NCBI GenBank assembly: GCA_018065085.1 | Contig: JAGHUA010000016.1 | Location: forward strand, 34,952-98,951 | Direction of reading: 5' to 3' | Source: Candidatus Liminaster caballi | GTDB taxonomy: Bacteria; Bacteroidota; Bacteroidia; Bacteroidales; UBA3663 | Length of the DNA stretch: 64,000 nt | Part shown: one piece after another, positions 7,014 to 61,643 of the stretch | Numbering within the stretch: position 1 is the stretch's first letter | Layout: every line of letters begins with the position of its first letter | Program-made: the position numbers and the translations under genes | The notes under the pieces: generated by a model | Database searches by the model: none | The model's input: the letters and a program-made list of their open reading frames with translations, nothing else | Told to the model about the DNA's origin: nothing

Positions 7014-7097
7014 TCTTTTAACCTTTTAACCTTTTAACCTTTTAACCTTTTAACCTTATAACCTCATAACCTTATAACCTCATAACCTTATAACCTC
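7014..7097. repeat. short tandem 'word' repeat: cttttaac x about 4.5, then cttataacc/tcataacc x about 5
   Basis: Read directly from the sequence. It fills the whole spacer between convergent dtd and dnaA. The + strand has no G from 7014 to 7106. Confidence 0.9.
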
Positions 7098-8489
7098 TTA
7101 CTTACTGGCCGCAATTTTTTGCTCGGCAGTCTCGAACTTTTCCTTAAATTCAGCGTCGGTGTCAAGAAGGTCCTCGACATTCTTCAGGGCGTGGAGAACT
7201 GTGGCATGATCACGGTTGCCCACAACCTGACCGATGCGACTTACCGATTGGGTCGTATATTTCTTGCAGAGCGACATTGCAGCCTGACGGGCAAGCACGA
7301 TCTCACGCTTGCGGCTCTTGCTGTTGATTGACTTCATGTCGATGCCGAACGTGCTGACAACGGCCTGAAGGATTGCTTCGCATGTGATGACTTTCTGTTC
7401 GATCTTCACAATCATGCGCATGACGCGACTTGCCAATTCCTGGTCAATAGGACGGTTGAAGGCAATGGAATGGGCGAGGAGAGAGTTGATGATACCCTCA
7501 AGGTCGCGCACATTATCCGTGGCGTTATGGGCAATATAGTCGATGACATCAGCATCGATCTGGAGACCTTCTTTCTCGCATTTGCCAAGGAGAATGTTCT
7601 TGCGAAGGTCATAGTCAGGATGTTCAATCTCTCCGATAAATCCCCACTTGAATCGGGTCAGCAGACGAGGGATGAGATCTTCAGCAAGTTCAACTGGCGG
7701 ACGGTCACAGGTCATGATCAACTGCTTGCCTGCGGTGTGCAGGTAGTTGAAGATGTGGAAGAATGTATTCTGAGTGGCAACAAGGTTCTTGCCTGCAAAT
7801 TCCTGAATATCATCGACGATAAGAACATCTATCGAGCGGTAGAAGTTGATAAAGTCGTTATGCTGGTTGTTGCGCACGGCATCGGTGTACTGAATCTTGA
7901 AAAGATGTGCAGGTACGTAGAGGACACGTTTCTCCGGCTGATGTTCCTGCACGTACAGGCCGATAGCCTGGGCCAGATGAGTCTTGCCCACGCCTGATGC
8001 GCCGAAGATAAAGAATGGGTTGAACGCATTGTTGCCGGGCTTCTGTGCAACAGTGAGGGCAGCACTCAGAGCAAGTTCATTGCTCTTGCCCTGACAGAAA
8101 GTCTGGAATCGGCAATATGGATTGAGATGTGAATCAAAATCCGCTTCCTTTTTCGTTTCATTTCGCTCTTGAGCCTCGGCCTTTACGCTGTCGTTCTGTG
8201 CAACTTCAATCTGATATCCTAAGGTAATAGGTCCGTACACGCGCTGCAATGTCTTCTTGAGCAGGTCGAAGTACTCTGACTCTAATCGTTCGTAAACAAA
8301 ATGGGACGGAATCTGCATCACCAACTTGCCATTGGTGAAACTGAGAACCTTGTTATGCGCAAAGTAAGCATTGTATGCCTCCTCATTGCCTACAAGGTTG
8401 TCCCGAATGATGTCGAGACATTGTTCCCATTGTGTTTCGTATTGTTGTTTCATATCGTAATCTGGTTCGATCAAAATTTCCGAGTGCAA
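7098..8489 (-). CDS. dnaA: chromosomal replication initiator protein DnaA
   Basis: The AAA+ P-loop GASGVGKTHL, LIVDDIQ, and the C-terminal DNA-binding helix RDHATVLHA are present. The length is 463 aa. Confidence 0.95.
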   Translation of the reverse strand: MHSEILIEPDYDMKQQYETQWEQCLDIIRDNLVGNEEAYNAYFAHNKVLSFTNGKLVMQIPSHFVYERLESEYFDLLKKTLQRVYGPITLGYQIEVAQNDSVKAEAQERNETKKEADFDSHLNPYCRFQTFCQGKSNELALSAALTVAQKPGNNAFNPFFIFGASGVGKTHLAQAIGLYVQEHQPEKRVLYVPAHLFKIQYTDAVRNNQHNDFINFYRSIDVLIVDDIQEFAGKNLVATQNTFFHIFNYLHTAGKQLIMTCDRPPVELAEDLIPRLLTRFKWGFIGEIEHPDYDLRKNILLGKCEKEGLQIDADVIDYIAHNATDNVRDLEGIINSLLAHSIAFNRPIDQELASRVMRMIVKIEQKVITCEAILQAVVSTFGIDMKSINSKSRKREIVLARQAAMSLCKKYTTQSVSRIGQVVGNRDHATVLHALKNVEDLLDTDAEFKEKFETAEQKIAASK

Positions 8490-18928: not shown

Positions 18929-19597
18929 AAAAATCGGTTCCGGGCATTTCCTAAGACTTGGGAAGTCGCCAGAACATTGTTCCCGGCATTTGCTAAGAGT
19001 TGGGAAGTCGTCAGAACATTGTTCCGAGCATTTCCAGAAACCTGGAAGTCGTCAGAACATTGTTCCGGGCATTTCCAGAAACCTAGAAGTCGTCAGAACA
19101 ATGTTCCCAGCATTTCCTAAGAGTTGTGAAGTCGCCAGAACATTGTTCCCAGCATTTCTAGAAACCTGGAAGTCGCCAGAACATTGTTCCCAGCATTTCC
19201 TAAGAGTTGGGAAGTCGTCAGAACATTGTTCCGAGCATTTCCAGAAACCTGGAAGTCGTCAGAACATTGTTCCGAGCATTTGCTAAGAGTTGGGAAGTCG
19301 CCAGAACATTGTTCCCAGCATTTCCAGAAACCTGGAAGTCGCCAGAACATTGTTCCGAGCATTTCCAGAAACCTGAAAGTCGTCAGAACATTGTTCCCAG
19401 CATTTCCAGAAACCTGGAAATCCAAATGAAACTTTCTCCAGCGCTTCCTAAGAGTTGGGAAGTCCAAATGAAACTTTCTCCAGCATTTCCTAAGAGTCGG
19501 GAAGTCCAAATGAAACTTTCTCTCGCACTTTCGAAGAGTTGGGAAGTCCAAATGAAACTTTTGCCGGCATTTCCTAAGAGTCGGGAAGTCCAAACGA
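18929..19597. repeat. array 1: about 16 contiguous mosaic 41/42-bp units (11 type A, then 5 type B)
   Basis: Unit modules are gcatttcc | taagagtYg or agaaacct | ggaagtc | gYcagaacattgttccSa (type A) or caaatgaaactttctcca (type B). There are no unique spacers. ORFs on both strands in several frames arise only because stop codons are rare. Confidence 0.95.
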
Positions 19598-19745
19598 ATG
19601 CAAACTGAATGGATGCATTGGTGGTAAATGCATAGATGTCTTTTGCTTCAATTGCATTTTCCGCCTGTTCTGTTGGCGCATCAGATGTCTGAGCATACAC
19701 ACTGCTGAATAGCAGTAGTGATGCAGCAATTAAGATTTTTCTCAT
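19383..19745 (-). CDS. doubtful small exported protein whose C-terminal two thirds are read out of array 1
   Basis: It has a good signal peptide (MRKILIAASLLLFSSVYAQ) and a unique 30-aa segment. It then runs into 14-aa repeats (SFIWTSRLLGNAGE) encoded by type B units. It may be a gene truncated by the array. Confidence 0.25.
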   Translation of the reverse strand: MRKILIAASLLLFSSVYAQTSDAPTEQAENAIEAKDIYAFTTNASIQFAFVWTSRLLGNAGKSFIWTSQLFESARESFIWTSRLLGNAGESFIWTSQLLGSAGESFIWISRFLEMLGTMF

Positions 19746-24383: not shown

Positions 24384-25778
24384 ATGAAAAAAAAGCAAAC
24401 GCATCCTGCTAACTATTGGAACGATATAGAACGTTGTAGAGCCGTAGCAGAACGCTTTTCACGATTCTCTGATTTTGAACGATCAGAGCCTTCTGCATAT
24501 AGTGCTGCTCAAAGAAATGGATGGTTTGATGAAATTACTGCTCATATGTCTGGACGAAGAAAATATCCTCCACATTATTTTGACACATTTGAACATTGTT
24601 TCGAGGTAGCCCAAAAATACACAACATTAGAAGAACTTCGAATCAATGATAAAGGTTGTCATCAAGCATTATATTATAAACACCCAGAGTGGAGAGAAAA
24701 GTGTTTTGCTCATTTTGATATAAGAACAGAATTATCAGACATAGAATTACGTGATATCGTAGAAAAATACACCAACTATACAGAATTCAAGAAGAAAGAA
24801 CCAAGAGCATTTAGTGCAATAAAATATAGAGGATTGATTGACGATCTCTGCGGTCATATGAACAGAAAAGTAAATGTTCCTTATGACGCTTCGTTTACTT
24901 TTGAGGAATGTGCGAAAAGAGCAAAAAAATACAATCGCAGAACAGAATTCGATCATGGAGAAGATAAGCGTTATGCACAATGTGCGAGGAAAAGAGGTTG
25001 GTTTAAGGAAATAACCTCTCATATGGTACGAACTGGAAACCGAAAGAAAAGGTGTATTTATGTGGCTACCTTTAGTGATAATTATGCTTATGTAGGTCTT
25101 ACATATTTCGCAAAAAAAAGATGGAATGCTCACTTAAAAGATGAAGAATCTATAATTTATTCGCATGTAGAAGCAACCGGATTAACTCCAGAGTTTATCC
25201 AATTAACTGAATATATACCGCAAGAAGAAGCCTCTAAATTAGAAGGGACATATCTTTCACTATACGAAGATATGGGATATACTATGCTTAATCGTGCTCC
25301 GACTGGAGCACTGGGTTCTTCGGAAGGATATTCTAAAGAAGATGTAATAAATAAAGCCAAAGAAGCTGGTTCTCTTAAAAACTTCCGAGAAAAATACTCA
25401 GGGTACTATCAGCATGGCTATCGTAGTGATTATTGGGATGAAATCCTTGAAATACTGCCTAGAGAAGATGTTCCTAGAAGATTGTCTATCGAGGTTCTGA
25501 AAGAAATCGCTTCTCAATGTCACACAATGCAAGAATTCCGGAAAAAAGACCCTGCTGCTTTAGATAAGGCAAAAAAAATAGGAATACTTGATGAAATATG
25601 TTCTCATTTTGATAGATCAAATGAAAAGCATTTTAAAAGAATGCCTAGAAGCGAAAAAATCAAAATATTAGATTCTGGAATACCATATTCTGAACTATCG
25701 ACGAAGTACCCTGCTATATATTGTTGGTTACGTCGGAATAAAGACTATCTTAATAAATACTATCCAGAACATACTTAG
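24384..25778 (+). CDS. GIY-YIG-like nuclease domain protein flanked by six about 45-aa helical repeats (island gene 6)
   Basis: The central segment is RCIYVATFSDNYAYVGLTYFAKKRWNAHL...EGTYLSLYEDMGYTMLN (GIY..YVG..R..H..E..N spacing). Four N-terminal and two C-terminal repeats follow the pattern ..ECxxxAxKYxxxxEFxxxxxxAYxxAxRxGWxDEIxxHM. Confidence 0.6.
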   Translation: MKKKQTHPANYWNDIERCRAVAERFSRFSDFERSEPSAYSAAQRNGWFDEITAHMSGRRKYPPHYFDTFEHCFEVAQKYTTLEELRINDKGCHQALYYKHPEWREKCFAHFDIRTELSDIELRDIVEKYTNYTEFKKKEPRAFSAIKYRGLIDDLCGHMNRKVNVPYDASFTFEECAKRAKKYNRRTEFDHGEDKRYAQCARKRGWFKEITSHMVRTGNRKKRCIYVATFSDNYAYVGLTYFAKKRWNAHLKDEESIIYSHVEATGLTPEFIQLTEYIPQEEASKLEGTYLSLYEDMGYTMLNRAPTGALGSSEGYSKEDVINKAKEAGSLKNFREKYSGYYQHGYRSDYWDEILEILPREDVPRRLSIEVLKEIASQCHTMQEFRKKDPAALDKAKKIGILDEICSHFDRSNEKHFKRMPRSEKIKILDSGIPYSELSTKYPAIYCWLRRNKDYLNKYYPEHT

Positions 25779-26889: not shown

Positions 26890-28140
26890 TCAGAGTTCGA
26901 GGTCGCCGTCGAACACCTCGTGCCAAGGCAGACCCTGCTTGTTGAGCTCGGCCATGAATGGATCTGGGTCGAACTCCTCGACATTGTGAACGCCTGGCTT
27001 GTTCCACTTGCCTGTGAGGAACATCATGGCACCGATCATGGCTGGAACGCCAGTGGTGTAGCTTACGCCCTGCATGCCTGTCTCAAGGTATGCGGCGTGG
27101 TGCGAACAGTTGTTATAGACGTAGTAGGTCTTCTCCTTGCCGTCCTTCAAGCCACGGATGCGGCAGCCGATAGAAGTCTCGCCCTCGTAGTTCTCGCCGA
27201 GTTCCTTAGGATTAGGCAATACGGCCTTGAGGAACTGCAGAGGTACGATCTTGACCTTCTCAACGCCGGAACCGTCAGCCTTTGGAGCCTCATATTCAAC
27301 TTCGTCGATGCGAGCCATGCCGATGTTCTGGATCACGTCGAGATAGTTGAGATACTGCTGGCCGAAGGTCATCCAGAAACGTGCGCGCTTGATGGTTGGG
27401 TAGTTGATGACAAGGCTCTCGATCTCCTCGTGGTGAAGCAGGTAAGACTCCTTAGGACCGATGTTCGGGTAGGTGAGAGGTTTGTGGATCTCCATTGGCT
27501 CTGTCTCGATGTACTTGCCGTTCTCATAGTACTGGCCCTTCTGGGTGATCTCGCGGATGTTGATCTCTGGGTTGAAGTTGGTGGCAAATGCCTTGTGATG
27601 GTTGCCTGCATTGCAATCGACGATATCGAGATACTGAATCTCGTCGAAATGGTGCTTGGCGGCGTATGCGGTGAATACGGATGTCACACCTGGGTCGAAG
27701 CCGCAGCCGAGGATGGCGCAGAGACCTGCCTTCTCGAAGCGCTCGCGATATGCCCACTGCCATGAGTACTCGAAGTGTGCTACGTCCTTTGGCTCGTAGT
27801 TGGCGGTGTCCATGTAGTTGACGTGTGCCTCAAGACATGCGTCCATGATGGTGAGGTCCTGATAAGGCAATGCAAGGTTGATGCAGAGCTCAGGCTTGAA
27901 CTCGTTCATGAGCTTGACCAATGCCTGTACGTCATCGGCATCGACGCTTGCTGTTGTGATGTTGGCACTGATGCCATTCTTGGTGTAGAGGCGCTTGCGG
28001 ATTGCCTCGGCGGTTGCGTCGCACTTTGCCTTGGTGCGCGATGCGATGCAGATGTCTGTGAAGATGTCGGCATTCTGTGCCAACTTGTGTGCTGCTACGG
28101 TGCCTACGCCGCCACAGCCGATAAGTAATACTCGTGCCAT
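26890..28140 (-). CDS. saccharopine dehydrogenase family protein, carboxynorspermidine dehydrogenase-like
   Basis: The Rossmann N-terminus is MARVLLIGCGGVGTVAAHKL and the length is about 416 aa. The start was moved to the ATG at 28140, because the listed 31-aa extension is translated from the inverted-repeat element. Confidence 0.75.
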   Translation of the reverse strand: MARVLLIGCGGVGTVAAHKLAQNADIFTDICIASRTKAKCDATAEAIRKRLYTKNGISANITTASVDADDVQALVKLMNEFKPELCINLALPYQDLTIMDACLEAHVNYMDTANYEPKDVAHFEYSWQWAYRERFEKAGLCAILGCGFDPGVTSVFTAYAAKHHFDEIQYLDIVDCNAGNHHKAFATNFNPEINIREITQKGQYYENGKYIETEPMEIHKPLTYPNIGPKESYLLHHEEIESLVINYPTIKRARFWMTFGQQYLNYLDVIQNIGMARIDEVEYEAPKADGSGVEKVKIVPLQFLKAVLPNPKELGENYEGETSIGCRIRGLKDGKEKTYYVYNNCSHHAAYLETGMQGVSYTTGVPAMIGAMMFLTGKWNKPGVHNVEEFDPDPFMAELNKQGLPWHEVFDGDLEL

Positions 28141-28143
28141 TTT

Positions 28144-28394
28144 AGACCCTCCCCCCAGCCCCTCCACAAGGGAGGGGAGTATATACAAAAGGCTGGTCGT
28201 GTGCGTGGCGGCATGATAGGTTTTGTGCTGCATTTAGCAGGTCATTTGCCTAATTGATCCGCTGCATTTCGAAGCCTGAATATACGTCCTAAGGTTGTAG
28301 GAGGTATTTTTATAAGTTAATATTTATTGATCAAGTTGATATATAACAATATTTTAATATGTATATATTTGTGGAGGGGCTGGGGGGAGGGTCT
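28144..28394. mobile_element. 251-bp element bounded by perfect 26-bp inverted repeats (MITE-like, or an invertible segment)
   Basis: agaccctccccccagcccctccacaa at 28144-28169 is the exact reverse complement of ttgtggaggggctggggggagggtct at 28369-28394. The AT-rich 199-bp interior has no ORF. Confidence 0.35.
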
Positions 28395-30293
28395 TTACTC
28401 CCTCTCCAAATACGTATATCCGTACAATCCGTTTCTGTAATTGGTAAGGAATTCTTTTCCCTCTTCGAGCGTGATAGTGCCCTTCTTGACGGCCTTGGTG
28501 ACCCATGCTTCGAGGGTGCGAACCATCTTCTTGGTGTCGTATTCCACCCATCGCAGGACATCCTGAACGGTTTCGCCATCGATGGTCTGGTCGATGCTGT
28601 AGCCCTGCTTATCGACAGAGATATGTACGGCATTGACATCGCCAAAGAGATTGTGGAGGTCGCCGAGAATCTCCTGATATGCGCCGATGAGGAACACGCC
28701 GAGATAGTATTTGTCGTCCTTCTTGAGCGAGTGGATCGGCATGGCATTGACAATCTGACCGTCGGCAATATAGCTGACCACCTTGCCGTCGGAGTCGCAG
28801 GTCATGTCCTGGAGTGTGGCATTGCGGTCGGGACGTTCGTCGAGGCGCTGGATTGGCATGATAGGGAAGATCTGATCGATGGACCACATGTCAGGGAGCG
28901 ACTGGAAGAGCGAGAAATTGCAGTAATACTTGTCGGCCAGCAGTTTGCCAATCTTATGCAACTCCTCAGGCACGCGCTTCATGCCCTTGACCAGAGCGTT
29001 GATCTCGCGGGTGACACTCCAATAGAGTTTCTCGATCTGGGCGCGTGTGCGGAGGTCGATCATGCCGTGGCTGAAAAGCTGCAGCACCTCGTCGCGAATC
29101 TGCTGGGCATCGTGCCAAGACTCAAGAGCAGAGCGCTGGGTAAGGTTATCCCAGATTTCATACAGTTCCTTAACAAGTTCGTGATCGTCAGGACCTACAA
29201 CCCATTCCTCAGGCATCTCAGGGAGTGTGGCAGTCTCAAGCACCTCCATGACGAGCACAGAGTGATGTGCCGAGAGCGAACGGCCTGATTCGGTGATGAC
29301 GTTAGGATGCGGCAGATCGTTCTTGTCGGCTGCCTCCATGAGCTGATAGAGGATGTCGTTGACATACTCCTGGATAGAGTAGTTGACGCTCGATTCGCTC
29401 GTGGCTGAACGTGTGCCGTCATAGTCAACGCCAAGTCCGCCGCCGGCATCGACAAACTGGACAGGGAATCCCATCTTATGGAGCTGGACATAGAACTGCG
29501 AAGCCTCACGGATGGCAGTCTTGACGTGTCGGATATTGGTGACCTGGCTGCCGATATGGAAGTGGATGAGCTTGAGACAATCCTGCAGGTCGTGGTTCTC
29601 AAGATATTCGAGGGCTTCGAGCAGTTCGGACGAGGTAAGACCGAACTTTGAGGCATCGCCGCCTGACTGTTCCCACTTGCCGCTGCCGCTCGACGCCAGC
29701 TTGATGCGGATGCCGATGTTCGGCTTGACATTCAGACGCTTGGCAATCTTCGAGATGATCTCCAGTTCGTTGAGTTTCTCGGCAACGATATAGATGCGCT
29801 TGCCCATCTTCTGGGCGAGGAGAGCCAGCTCGATGTAGGAATCGTCCTTATAACCGTTACAGATGATGATGCTGTCGTAATCGGTGCATACGGCAATCAC
29901 GGCATGGAGTTCTGGCTTTGAACCAGCCTCAAGACCGAGGTTGAACTTACGGCCGTGGCTGACCATCTCCTCAACGACAGGCTGCATCTGGTTGACCTTG
30001 ATAGGATAGACCGTATAGCAATCGCCTTTGAAGTCATATTCCTCGGCAGCCTTCTTGAAACACTGTGACATACGTTCAATGCGGTTGTCGAGGATGTCTG
30101 GAAAACGCAAAAGGACCGGCGCTGAGATGTCTCTCAATGCCAGTTCGTCCATTACATCACGCAGGTCAACTGCAACTCCGTCTTTCTTAGGTGTCACCAC
30201 TACGTGACCCTTCTCGTTGATGTCAAAATAAGAGACACCCCATCCATGAATATTGTAAAGCTCCGCAGAGTCTTCAATATGCCACTTCTTCAT
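28395..30293 (-). CDS. speA: biosynthetic arginine decarboxylase
   Basis: The length is 632 aa. The N-terminus MKKWHIEDSAELYNIHGWG..YF.IN..G and the PLP-fold motifs (YPIKVN; GGGLGVDYDG) are typical of SpeA. Confidence 0.9.
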   Translation of the reverse strand: MKKWHIEDSAELYNIHGWGVSYFDINEKGHVVVTPKKDGVAVDLRDVMDELALRDISAPVLLRFPDILDNRIERMSQCFKKAAEEYDFKGDCYTVYPIKVNQMQPVVEEMVSHGRKFNLGLEAGSKPELHAVIAVCTDYDSIIICNGYKDDSYIELALLAQKMGKRIYIVAEKLNELEIISKIAKRLNVKPNIGIRIKLASSGSGKWEQSGGDASKFGLTSSELLEALEYLENHDLQDCLKLIHFHIGSQVTNIRHVKTAIREASQFYVQLHKMGFPVQFVDAGGGLGVDYDGTRSATSESSVNYSIQEYVNDILYQLMEAADKNDLPHPNVITESGRSLSAHHSVLVMEVLETATLPEMPEEWVVGPDDHELVKELYEIWDNLTQRSALESWHDAQQIRDEVLQLFSHGMIDLRTRAQIEKLYWSVTREINALVKGMKRVPEELHKIGKLLADKYYCNFSLFQSLPDMWSIDQIFPIMPIQRLDERPDRNATLQDMTCDSDGKVVSYIADGQIVNAMPIHSLKKDDKYYLGVFLIGAYQEILGDLHNLFGDVNAVHISVDKQGYSIDQTIDGETVQDVLRWVEYDTKKMVRTLEAWVTKAVKKGTITLEEGKEFLTNYRNGLYGYTYLERE

Positions 30294-36571: not shown

Positions 36572-37714
36572 TTATGCTGGATATTGCATGGTGATGCAAT
36601 GGAGTGAACCATGCTGTCTGACAAGAACCTGACAGTCAATGCCTACAATCTCACGGTCAGGGAATGCGTCTTGCAATGCCTCCATCGCCTGTCTGTCCTT
36701 GGCTGGTTGTCCATAGGTCGGCATGAGCACCGCACCATTGACGATAAGGAAATTGGCGTATGTGGCTGGCAGTCGCTGTTCGCGTTCTTCCTCAACGAAA
36801 TAGGCAAAGTTTCCTTCGATGACAGGGTCGGGCAGAGGCACGGGAATCAAGCGGAATGGACGTCCGTCGATGGTGCGAAGCGCCATTAATTCGCGTTCCA
36901 TGGCCGATAGCGTCCCGAAATGCTCGTCTTCCGGATCTGTGCACTGCACATAGACAATGGTGTCATTCGGACAGAGACGTGCCACCGTGTCAATGTGTCC
37001 GTCAGTGTCATCTCCGTCGAGCCAGCTGTTGTCGAGCCATAGGATATGCTTGGCATTGAGCGTACGTCTGAGCATTTCCTCTGCCTCTGCCTTAGTCTCG
37101 TAATAGTTGCGGTTTGGAGCCATCAGGCAGCTGGTTGTGGTGAGTAATGTGCCGCATCCATCGCTCTCCACACTTCCGCCTTCGAGCACGATGCGACGGT
37201 TGTCGGCATAGCTTACCTCGCCTTTCAGATTCTGGCTAAGCCACTCGAATGTGTGTTCGTTGATACGGTTGTCAAAGTTCGATGCAAACTTCTGTCCCCA
37301 TCCGTTGAAGCAGAAATCTGAAAGGATTTTACCTCCTTTATCTCCCTTATCTCCCTTATCTTCTTTATCTCCCTTATCTCCCTTATCTTCTTTATCCTCT
37401 ATACCTTCCATTCCACTCTCTCCCACAAGGGTCAGGAACGCATGATCGCGCGCCCAAGTGTCGTTGGTTGGCACTTCAAGGATGTGGATGCGATCCATCA
37501 TAACGCCAGGAGTGTCATTAAGAATCTCACGGACCGATTCCGGTTCTGGTGTAACGATGATGAGATCCTCGCGCAAAGACACTTCACGAGCCACATTACG
37601 ATAACACTCCACTGCCGATTGGAGATATGGATTCCAGTCGGTGTCGGCATGAGGCCAGGCAATCTGAACGAAGCTCTGAGGCTCCCACTCGGCAGGCAGG
37701 CGTTTAGTGTACAT
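36572..37714 (-). CDS. aguA: agmatine deiminase family protein carrying an about 33-aa low-complexity insertion
   Basis: The N-terminus is LPAEWEPQSFVQIAWPH, with WARD, DGHIDT and the C-terminal GSLHCITMQ catalytic Cys context. The insertion reads ..GIEDKEDKGDKGDKEDKGDKGDKGGK.. Confidence 0.8.
   Translation of the reverse strand: MYTKRLPAEWEPQSFVQIAWPHADTDWNPYLQSAVECYRNVAREVSLREDLIIVTPEPESVREILNDTPGVMMDRIHILEVPTNDTWARDHAFLTLVGESGMEGIEDKEDKGDKGDKEDKGDKGDKGGKILSDFCFNGWGQKFASNFDNRINEHTFEWLSQNLKGEVSYADNRRIVLEGGSVESDGCGTLLTTTSCLMAPNRNYYETKAEAEEMLRRTLNAKHILWLDNSWLDGDDTDGHIDTVARLCPNDTIVYVQCTDPEDEHFGTLSAMERELMALRTIDGRPFRLIPVPLPDPVIEGNFAYFVEEEREQRLPATYANFLIVNGAVLMPTYGQPAKDRQAMEALQDAFPDREIVGIDCQVLVRQHGSLHCITMQYPA
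37337..37399. repeat. in-frame 9-bp x 7 (27-bp x 2.3) tandem repeat inside aguA
   Basis: The + strand reads tttatctcc cttatctcc cttatcttc and so on. The + strand has no G from 37326 to 37428. Confidence 0.9.
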
Positions 37715-47542: not shown

Positions 47543-47670
47543 TTCTTTACTTTCTTTAGCCTTTTAACCTTTTAACCTTTTAACCTTTTAACCCTTTAAC
47601 CTTTTAACCCTTTAACCTCTTCACTCTCTTTACTCTCTTTACTCTTTACTCCTTACCCTCTCATTACTAT
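47543..47670. repeat. short 'word' repeats (cttttaac / cctttaac x about 7, then ctctttact variants)
   Basis: Read directly. A single G occurs on the + strand between 47531 and 47670. The last 10 codons of the upstream 165-aa ORF lie inside it. Confidence 0.9.
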
Positions 47671-52763: not shown

Positions 52764-52766
52764 TGT

Positions 52767-53302
52767 CCCAACTCTTAGGAAGTGCCGCCGAAAGTTTCAT
52801 TTGGATTTCCCAACTCTTAGGAAGTGCCGCCGAAACTTTCATTTGGAGTTCCCAACTCTTAGGAAATGCTGCCGAAACTTTCATTTGGACTTCCCAACTC
52901 TTAGGAAATGCTGCCGAAAGTTTCATTTGGGCTTCCCAACTCTTAGGAAATGCCGCCGAAAGTTTGTTTTGGATTTCCAGCTTTCTGGAAATGCTTAGAA
53001 CAAAGTTCTGGCGACTTCCCAAGTCTTGGCAAATGCTCGGAACAATGTGCTGGCGATTTCCCAAGTCTTGGCAAATCCTCGGAACAATGTTCTGGCGACT
53101 TCTAGCTTTCTGGAAATGCTGAGAACAATGTTCTGGCGACTTCCCAAGTCTTGGCAAATCCTCGGAACAATGTGCTGAGGACTTCCAGCTTTCTGGAAAT
53201 GCTGAGAACAATGTTCTAGCGATTTCCTAACTCTTGGGAAATGCTGAGAACAATGTTCTGGCGACTTCCCAACTCTTGGGAAATGCTTAGAACCGATTTT
53301 TT
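52767..53302. repeat. array 3: inverted counterpart of array 1 (5 reverse-complement type B units, then about 7.5 reverse-complement type A units)
   Basis: It starts 4 nt after the DUF853 stop. It ends in gaaccgatttttt, the reverse complement of the aaaaatcggttc that opens array 1. Confidence 0.95.
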
Positions 53303-61171: not shown

Positions 61172-61549
61172 TTATACCTCGGCAACAACCTCAATCTCGA
61201 TGAGGCCATTCTTTGGAAGAGTCTTTACGGCAACAGCCGAACGAGCCGGGAACGGAGTAACGAAGTACTGTGAATAGAGTTCGTTGAGAGTGGCGAAGTC
61301 AGCCATGTCGGCCATAAAGACTGAGACCTTGACAACCTTTTCGAACGACGATCCGGCGGCAGCAAGGATTGCACCTACATTCTTAAGGCTCTGTTCGGCC
61401 TGGCTGCGGAAGTCCTCGCCTGCGAAATTGCCTGTTGTTGGATCAATGCCGAGCTGACCGCTTGCATAGAGCATACCGTTGATGACTACTGCCTGACTGT
61501 AAGCACCGATGGCAGCTGGTGCGTTTGGGGTAGAGATAATGGATTTCAT
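61172..61549 (-). CDS. ridA: RidA family reactive-intermediate deaminase
   Basis: The 125-aa product contains APAAIGAYSQAV..NGMLYASGQLG.DP.TG and ends with EIEVVA. Confidence 0.85.
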   Translation of the reverse strand: MKSIISTPNAPAAIGAYSQAVVINGMLYASGQLGIDPTTGNFAGEDFRSQAEQSLKNVGAILAAAGSSFEKVVKVSVFMADMADFATLNELYSQYFVTPFPARSAVAVKTLPKNGLIEIEVVAEV

Positions 61550-61643
61550 TGTTTTATTGTTTTATTGTTTTATTGTTTTATTGTTTTTTAATTTGTAAAT
61601 TTGTCCTTCGTTTTTCGTTCTTCGTATTTTCGTCTTTCGTCAT
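61550..61643. repeat. short 'word' repeats (tgttttat x 4.5, then ttcgtNttt variants)
   Basis: Read directly. It fills the whole spacer between the 176-aa ORF stop and the ridA start. The + strand is C-free from 61550 to 61604. Confidence 0.85.

Follow-up and report, generated by a model that had tools for sequence, protein, structure and literature searches.

A 251-bp element with G-rich terminal inverted repeats between speA and CANSDH of Candidatus Liminaster caballi is probably a copy of a dispersed palindromic family

The junction between speA and a carboxynorspermidine dehydrogenase/synthase-like gene (CANSDH) of Candidatus Liminaster caballi (Bacteroidales) is occupied by a 251-bp element with perfect G/C-rich terminal inverted repeats. 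The junction lies in a 64,000-nt stretch of contig JAGHUA010000016.1 (assembly GCA_018065085.1, positions 34,952 to 98,951), which is here termed the window; positions given without a contig handle (L numbers) are those of the window. The element was deduced to be, probably, a non-autonomous copy of a family resembling MITEs (miniature inverted-repeat transposable elements), located at a derived and otherwise empty junction. A MITE had been one of three readings offered in a preliminary description of this DNA. That reading was upheld in that a large dispersed family exists and the spacer is empty in the closest relatives, but not in full, as no target-site duplication was found and the protein associated with the family, DUF559, is not a transposase.

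Both genes at the junction are encoded on the minus strand. The upstream cistron, speA (28395-30293, 632 aa), was assigned to biosynthetic arginine decarboxylase (NCBIfam NF003763, E = 8e-267). The downstream cistron, CANSDH (26890-28140, 416 aa), was assigned by its match to NCBIfam NF043000 (E = 2e-122), which falls below the NCBIfam cut-off and therefore denotes a family member that is not necessarily an equivalog. Sacchrp_dh_NADP/Sacchrp_dh_C domains were present in the homologues of CANSDH, and the gene identities proposed in the preliminary description agree with these matches. The outer terminal inverted repeat consists of a CANSDH-proximal arm (AGACCCTCCCCCCAGCCCCTCCACAA, 28144-28169) and a speA-proximal arm (TTGTGGAGGGGCTGGGGGGAGGGTCT, 28369-28394) that are 100% complementary over 26 nt and lie 199 nt apart, as had been described. 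The speA-proximal arm contains the 19-nt core of the family presented below, and the CANSDH-proximal arm contains its reverse complement. The 26-mer was present at just these two sites in the window, even with 3 mismatches allowed, and in 0 of 100 shuffles. The spacer is wholly filled by the element. On the right, the arm end at 28394 is 0 nt from the speA stop codon (28395-28397, TTA on the plus strand), while on the left 3 nt (TTT) separate the arm from the CANSDH ATG (28138-28140); the close placement claimed earlier for both arms was thus confirmed.

The terminal repeat on the CANSDH side is really 43 nt long (28144-28186) and represents a canonical family end. The arm is followed there by the inner half of a compound repeat (GGGAGGGGAGTATATAC, 28170-28186), a 16-17-mer that recurs unchanged at element ends in at least 19 copies of the family on other contigs, and CCCCTCC at 28159-28165 folds with GGAGGGG at 28171-28177 into the local hairpin noted previously. 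The speA side carries the outer 26 nt and an 8-nt remnant of the inner repeat (GTATATAT, 28361-28368) and is without the inner 10-11 nt (CTCCCCTCCC) expected from comparison with the canonical right end (...GTATATACTCCCCTCCC-TTGT-GGAGGGG...). Between the two ends lies an interior specific to this element (28187-28360); it is without an open reading frame (ORF) of its own and resembles no other member of the family. The interior had been called AT-rich, and this applies to the speA-proximal 78 nt (28291-28368, GC 0.18) but not to the remainder (GC 0.49). It had also been said to have no ORF, which holds essentially, except that, from an ATG at 28233, an open frame continues across the left arm and joins CANSDH in frame (MQHKT...LVEGLGGGSK-MARV). 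Being short (251 bp), non-coding and bounded by terminal inverted repeats, the element has the structure of a MITE and lies within its size range (under about 600 bp). Two candidate identities for the interior were rejected: as an ancestral spacer, its AT-rich part gave no significant alignment to the spacers of relatives, and as a decayed DUF559 gene or kin of other family interiors it showed no similarity.

The assignment to a family was based on the terminal repeats. A contig scan found the 19-nt core (GGAGGGGCTGGGGGGAGGG) in at least 120 metagenome contigs, which range in GC from 0.35 to 0.70 and many of which resemble rumen or gut Prevotellaceae. The core is usually preceded by ACTCCCCTCCC and a 4-6-nt loop, forming a compound motif, ACTCCCCTCCC-loop-GGGAGGGGCTGGGGGGAGGGTCT. 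By pairing each core with its inverted partner, 49 distinct complete elements were assembled, mostly of 99-160 nt with a mode near 110 nt. The preliminary description had suggested searching the full genome and relatives for further copies; dispersed copies were seen here at the level of the family. Elements of the family are bounded by compound repeats some 40 nt long, which read AGACCCTCCCCCCAGCCCCTCCC-loop-GGGAGGGGAGTA at one end and its mirror image at the other. They are conserved over 40-45 nt around variable interiors, and their consensus is AGACCC-TCCCCC(C)-NN-CCCCTCC(C)-loop-GGGAGGGGAGTA, mirrored at the other end. The element in the window fits this definition over the 43 nt of its CANSDH side and over the outer 26 nt and 8-nt remnant of its speA side. 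Every end in the family folds as a hairpin and is an inverted copy of the opposite end, as in the inverted pairs of repetitive extragenic palindromic (REP) sequences. The consensus structure obtained from the ends of 32 elements contained 25 long-range pairs between left and right, 5 of them with compensatory changes, such as GGGCGGGG/CCCCGCCC in place of GGGAGGGG/CCCCTCCC in L139, L038 and L120. As the left and right ends co-vary in this manner, the symmetry of the ends was concluded to be what is maintained.

Other arrangements of the motif were also observed, namely three copies at 83-97-nt spacing (L129 713-911), a duplicated end (L172 2703-2888), and TCTGTTGGGGGAGGG occurring three times after an end (L149 about 1040-1100). 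The exact 26-mer had no match in a scan of GTDB genomes. No match to the motif was obtained in a plasmid collection, where the low-complexity filter of BLAST may hide it, and among viral contigs the core motif was found in one.

The filled speA-CANSDH junction appears from these sequences to be derived, with the closest relatives representing empty sites. The four closest contigs (L202-L205), with CANSDH 92-93% identical, have speA directly upstream and an AT-rich spacer of 33 nt (L202) or 62-63 nt (L203-L205) in which no G-rich repeat is present. A similar AT-rich empty spacer, within the same range of 33-63 nt, was found in a distant relative (L069). This comparison, made with relatives, corresponds to that with strains lacking the element which had been proposed as a check. 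In the GTDB protein scan, 79 of the 80 relatives were without speA upstream and hence uninformative for the spacer, and an exact-protein look-up of speA, or of CANSDH with two alternative starts, returned no second contig of this locus. One candidate for a near-identical relative, P0001 (L201 4640-6295), was rejected as an internally duplicated assembly product in an unrelated context. Both P0001 and P0015 have internal duplications (about 135 and about 100 residues, respectively), most likely assembly artefacts, that inflate their bit scores and allow them to be mistaken for the closest relatives.

A second filled junction was found in L231 (CANSDH 87% identical), where a 111-nt family member (region 226-345) begins 1 nt past the stop codon of speA and reaches up to the CANSDH ATG. 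The gene caller had extended the CANSDH of this contig through the whole element (P0017, N-terminus MTHPVPPYKGRE...PTPSLVGRVGESP). In the window, the last codons of speA with the stop (TTG GAG AGG GAG TAA, 28395-28410, minus strand) are G-rich, resemble the inner repeat GGGAGGGGAGTA and directly abut the element. The form TTG GAR AGG GAR TAA is common to the window and L231, with 27 of the last 30 nt identical, while the empty-site relatives have CGT or CGA for that arginine and not AGG. The AGG codon accounts for 1 of the 26 Arg codons of speA in the window and for 0 in CANSDH. An old shared insertion, a preferred target resembling GGGAGGGGAGTA, transfer of a filled allele with its flanks and co-conversion of the flanks all fit this shared end.

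The sites occupied by other family members were also informative. Nearly half of the complete elements (23 of 49) are situated in frames that stay free of stops for at least 60 codons to either side. In structure alignments, a Tex homologue has 64 residues in place of 5 residues of Pseudomonas Tex 2oce (a net insert of 59 aa), and a cellobiose phosphorylase has a 53-residue insert between residues 275 and 278 of 3qde. The inserted peptides read RPSPQPLPxGRGV...SPPxREGxGGGS. The in-frame copies observed were those of L157 (6430-6549), L136 (2022-2131), L191, L147 (two), L148, L160 (two), L103, L121 and L091; the hosts include Tex, cellobiose phosphorylase, an ABC-F ATPase, a TonB-dependent receptor and a non-ribosomal peptide synthetase-like protein, and the inserts are Pro/Gly-rich and about 35-60 aa long. 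All elements with long AT-rich interiors (139-245 nt), including that of the window, are intergenic. In about 6 of 13 intergenic cases the stop codon of a gene abuts the element end, with TAA directly followed by AGACCC, as at speA here. Since abutting stops recur in the family, the exact placement at speA was deduced to be a family habit, which could reflect either target preference or survivorship of harmless insertions. The target-site duplications that had been suggested as a mark of insertion did not materialize: none was consistent in about 45 elements, with TTT, TAAA and ATG considered, and the possible TAAA...TAAA flanks in the window are absent from other copies.

A coding partner was identified in long versions of the family, L143 (498 nt) and L164 (487 nt), each of which contains an ORF of 122-126 aa that matches DUF559/PF04480 (E = 5e-31 and 2e-34, respectively; Pfam label DUF559 / MTES_1575, restriction-endonuclease-like). 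In versions of about 490 bp the gene enclosed by the repeats encodes 122-123 aa. DUF559 belongs to the Vsr branch of PD-(D/E)XK nucleases (PMC3424549). Homologues were obtained in more than 1,100 clusters (E below 1e-20), many of them annotated Prevotella and most on very short contigs, as is the case for multi-copy repeats. Four DUF559 genes that were picked by protein similarity alone (L206, L216, L227 and L228) proved to be flanked by the same compound repeats in all four cases, so that with L143 and L164 the repeats flank 6 of 6 Prevotella-type DUF559 genes. The domain also adjoins the motif in four contigs with variant terminal repeats (GC 0.54-0.65). The four genes picked by similarity are co-directional inside operons, 0-10 nt from the upstream stop codon. 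In L227 (1862-1960) and L228 (1888-2000) the downstream ABC-transporter gene is read from an ATG of the element in frame through the repeat (...TPLPHREGLGGGS...), and in L206 and L216 (2862-2960) the downstream operon gene is likewise read in frame from an ATG within the element. No alternative ATG is visible after the repeat in L227, where the element may supply the downstream start codon.

Between the DUF559 genes, dN was 0.11-0.27 and dS was saturated in 13 of 15 pairs; the genes are old and their proteins are under purifying selection. The repeats are far better conserved than the synonymous sites, which was taken to argue that they are functional partners of the DUF559 protein. No transposase was found between any repeat pair, and distant pairs enclose unrelated housekeeping genes only. 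With the pattern method, no relatives of DUF559 were found in viral contigs.

These data led us to propose a mechanism in which the element would have reached the speA-CANSDH junction by insertion or by transfer of the filled allele, and in which the DUF559 endonuclease would act in trans on the terminal repeats to propagate or maintain it. The mechanism would leave no target-site duplication and would therefore not be DDE-type cut-and-paste. The suggestion that DUF559 is the enzyme that moves or maintains the element is evenly balanced at best. A wider proposal, advanced tentatively, is that small free-standing DUF559 proteins are mobility or maintenance endonucleases of an undescribed prokaryotic selfish element, of which the element in the window would be a derivative. 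It is possible, with some doubt, that such an element is characterized by G-rich, quadruplex-capable hairpin ends, by having neither transposase nor target-site duplication, and by occurrence in contigs of very different base composition. We would also suggest, with the same caution, that it settles at operon junctions, sometimes supplying the downstream start codon, and that its miniatures are tolerated as in-frame translated inserts, including in essential genes. No description of G-rich repeats flanking DUF559 or of such in-frame insertions was found in the open-access literature.

Several observations weigh against the element being a mobile family copy. The end on the speA side is truncated, and the structure could consist of two end fragments around older DNA rather than of one clean insertion. 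The 174-nt interior had no match beyond the inner repeat in 1.5 Mb of fetched loci (blastn-short). A single copy is present in the 64-kb window, and about 2 were found in 666 kb of relatives. The arms of the window element form the sole perfect pair (26/26) among the 32 elements, the others having 19-25 pairs, and this could mean selection for pairing or homogenisation. The mobility and endonuclease activity of DUF559 are proposals that derive from sequence. The divergence among DUF559 copies is ancient, and no exact protein was seen in more than one genomic context, which fits long residence as well as mobility. Finally, the nucleotide identity to the window is about 76-78% for L231 and the empty-site contigs alike. 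Protein identity puts L231 farther away but nucleotide identity does not, and one insertion, two insertions and allele transfer are therefore inseparable.

The transcript across the junction was predicted to be strongly structured. In the folded speA-CANSDH RNA the 26-bp stem is extended by 8 bp (28361-28368 pairing with 28179-28186), and the minimum free energy is -104.9 kcal/mol (z = -8). A search of Rfam 15 yielded chance-level similarity only, to a plant microRNA model (24.8 bits versus a gathering score of 230). Stems of this kind are substrates of RNase III and barriers to exonucleases, and in Bacteroidota, where Shine-Dalgarno pairing plays little part, initiation is lowered by structure beside a start codon. 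In the window, the A/U-rich leader that is normally present would give way to the stem, which would lie 3 nt upstream of the CANSDH AUG and could impede exonucleases, recruit RNase III or reduce the initiation of translation. The modelled stem is taken to be real but probably a by-product, because the terminal repeats of a mobile family fold automatically. The preliminary description had read the element as a 26-bp RNA stem; the fold itself bears this out, whereas a function kept by selection is only a possibility, and the stem arises automatically from the repeats. Any effects on the operon are regarded as incidental to a selfish insertion and not as those of a designed switch.

If the stem had instead been domesticated as a cis-regulatory RNA, it would be selected to uncouple the expression of speA and CANSDH, whether by offering a site to RNase III, by stabilising the 3' end of the speA message in the manner of a REP or by occluding the start of CANSDH. 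Such a role would account for the very stable 26+8-bp stem ending 3 nt before the AUG and for the uniquely perfect pairing of its arms, and it is consistent with the occupation of the same junction in a second genome (L231) and with the many intergenic family members placed exactly at gene ends or operon junctions. We nevertheless deemed it unlikely, as a plain AT-rich spacer suffices in the closest relatives, the stem is automatic in every family member, including intragenic ones, and the interior and length differ wholly between the window and L231. It is also rather improbable that the structure is a composite in which a canonical end by CANSDH and a solitary, truncated 26-nt end by speA bracket the ancestral AT-rich spacer together with other DNA, an arrangement that partial deletion, nested insertion or the duplication of one end in inverted orientation could have produced. 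The missing inner half of the speA-side end is what this would leave; the adjacent 78 nt, at GC 0.18, are like the spacers of relatives, the total of 251 nt is far above the family mode of about 110 nt, the interior is unique, and solitary ends occur elsewhere. Against this, the AT-rich part has no significant similarity to the spacer of any relative, long AT-rich interiors (139-171 nt) are found in other intergenic family members too, and the arms are perfectly complementary.

Inversion was considered because the preliminary description had proposed an inverton, in which flipping of a phase-variable segment would place a promoter before CANSDH. Perfect inverted repeats 199 nt apart provide the right geometry, and a Bacteroidetes -7-like box (TATATTTG, 28364-28371, plus strand) that straddles the junction of interior and arm would face CANSDH after inversion. 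As had been stated, this box is single and wrongly oriented at present, pointing into speA in antisense; it is the sole match to TAnnTTTG in 28100-28440 on either strand. At a background of 0.37 per kb per strand, about 0.25 such matches are expected by chance in this stretch, so that the box is within chance expectation. No TTTG -33 element was found upstream of it, and a scan for sigma-70 promoters and terminators detected nothing inside the element. No tyrosine or serine recombinase domain, and hence no invertase, was found in ORFs within about 10 kb, although a trans-acting enzyme elsewhere is possible. These repeats also border in-frame insertions in coding sequences, where inversion would be destructive, and DUF559 genes. 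When seven family members were re-sampled 16 times in independent assemblies, they were always collinear, with 0 flipped interiors. The inverton reading was consequently not sustained, and it is deemed very unlikely. One published observation speaks for it: DUF559 and endonuclease domain-containing proteins are enriched 14-fold and 10-fold, respectively, among predicted targets of programmed inversion (PMC9881135). The family repeats that flank DUF559 and occur inside neighbouring genes might explain this enrichment, an interpretation that is ours and not a result of that paper. It is more improbable still that the repeat is due to chance or to faulty assembly. Assemblies can mis-join at repeats and the window appears to derive from an uncultured genome of Prevotellaceae type, from rumen or gut, yet the 26-mer did not arise in any shuffle, the same ends recur across independent contigs (hundreds) from different projects, and both flanking genes are intact and syntenic with those of relatives.

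Further features were observed in the window. At 18937-19598 and 52766-53293 there are about 16 and about 12 tandem copies, respectively, of a 41-42-nt doubly palindromic unit (GAACATTGTTC, TTCCAGAAACCTGGAA). The two arrays are inverted, lie about 33 kb apart, bracket the speA region and overlap probably spurious ORFs; they may be the boundaries of a large segment that is mobile or invertible. A gene of the agmatine deiminase type (PAD_porph, E = 9e-111; 36572-37714, minus strand) is located 6 kb from speA and CANSDH, and several polyamine-pathway genes therefore cluster here. In L202, an Orn/DAP/Arg decarboxylase-like gene is found just upstream of speA. A 464-aa ORF (24384-25778, plus strand) is situated 1.1 kb downstream of CANSDH on the opposite strand; the one domain recognised in it, at its centre, is a GIY-YIG nuclease (E = 7.5e-06). 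Tandem octamers are present at 7015-7100 (CTTTTAAC, 10.8 copies), 47555-47618 (TTTAACCT, 8 copies) and 61544-61587 (TTTTATTG, 5.5 copies).

The interpretation as a probable mobile family copy explains a striking repeat at the speA-CANSDH junction as selfish DNA rather than as a purpose-built switch, and it predicts that strong RNA structure replaces the leader of a gene of the spermidine pathway. It connects a specific, conserved DNA partner with DUF559 (PF04480), a widespread domain whose function is unknown. It also exposes a palindromic family that is found in frame in housekeeping genes of abundant rumen and gut Prevotellaceae, where its members give rise to spurious extensions at the N-terminus and Pro/Gly-rich segments in predicted genes and fragment assemblies, and may inflate predictions of 'programmed inversions'. 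The family constitutes a testable system for a route of DNA mobility that does not involve a transposase.

When compared with known systems, the element differs from MITE, REP and inverton in defining features of each. Bacteroidales invertons resemble it in having inverted repeats on either side of some 200 bp in front of a gene, but no complete promoter or nearby invertase was found for the window element, and its dispersed repeat family also occurs in coding regions. Bacterial MITEs, such as the Correia/NEMIS elements of Neisseria, are similarly short and non-coding, with terminal inverted repeats and, as seen here at the level of the family, many dispersed copies and rarer, longer versions that bear a gene; they too frequently lie between genes that are co-transcribed and there form a long hairpin in the transcript, and Correia elements are substrates of RNase III. 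Unlike them, the window family has no target-site duplication, its coding relative is a 122-aa DUF559 endonuclease and not a DDE transposase, and its ends are compound hairpins of 40-45 nt around interiors that are unconserved between copies. The likeness to REP/REPIN sequences and their RAYT proteins lies in G/C-rich imperfect palindromes arranged as inverted doublets, in the absence of target-site duplications, and in the one small, conserved gene that the repeats flank, which is not transposase-like. Intercistronic REP copies can stabilise the upstream mRNA, as in malE-malF of E. coli. The partner of the window family is, in contrast, DUF559 with its PD-(D/E)XK fold and not a Y1/HUH (IS200/IS605-like) protein; its copies are often intragenic and in frame whereas REPs are extragenic, and its repeat spans contigs of GC 0.35 to 0.70 and is not species-specific.

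Vsr-like homing endonucleases (the I-Bth0305I family; PMC3239194, PMC2677866) are alike in that a small endonuclease of the Vsr/DUF559 branch is carried by a selfish insertion that lies co-directionally within operons or genes. Theirs are found in group I introns, inteins or between split genes, without terminal inverted repeats, and homing requires a homologous empty allele, which leaves the dispersal to many unrelated sites unexplained. Rickettsia palindromic elements (RPEs) differ in sequence and hosts, which are unrelated, and in being without a known coding partner, and the copy in the window, unlike RPEs, is intergenic. The resemblance to RPEs is in the in-frame members of the family, as both are palindromes of about 100-150 nt that lie in frame in conserved genes and are evidently translated.

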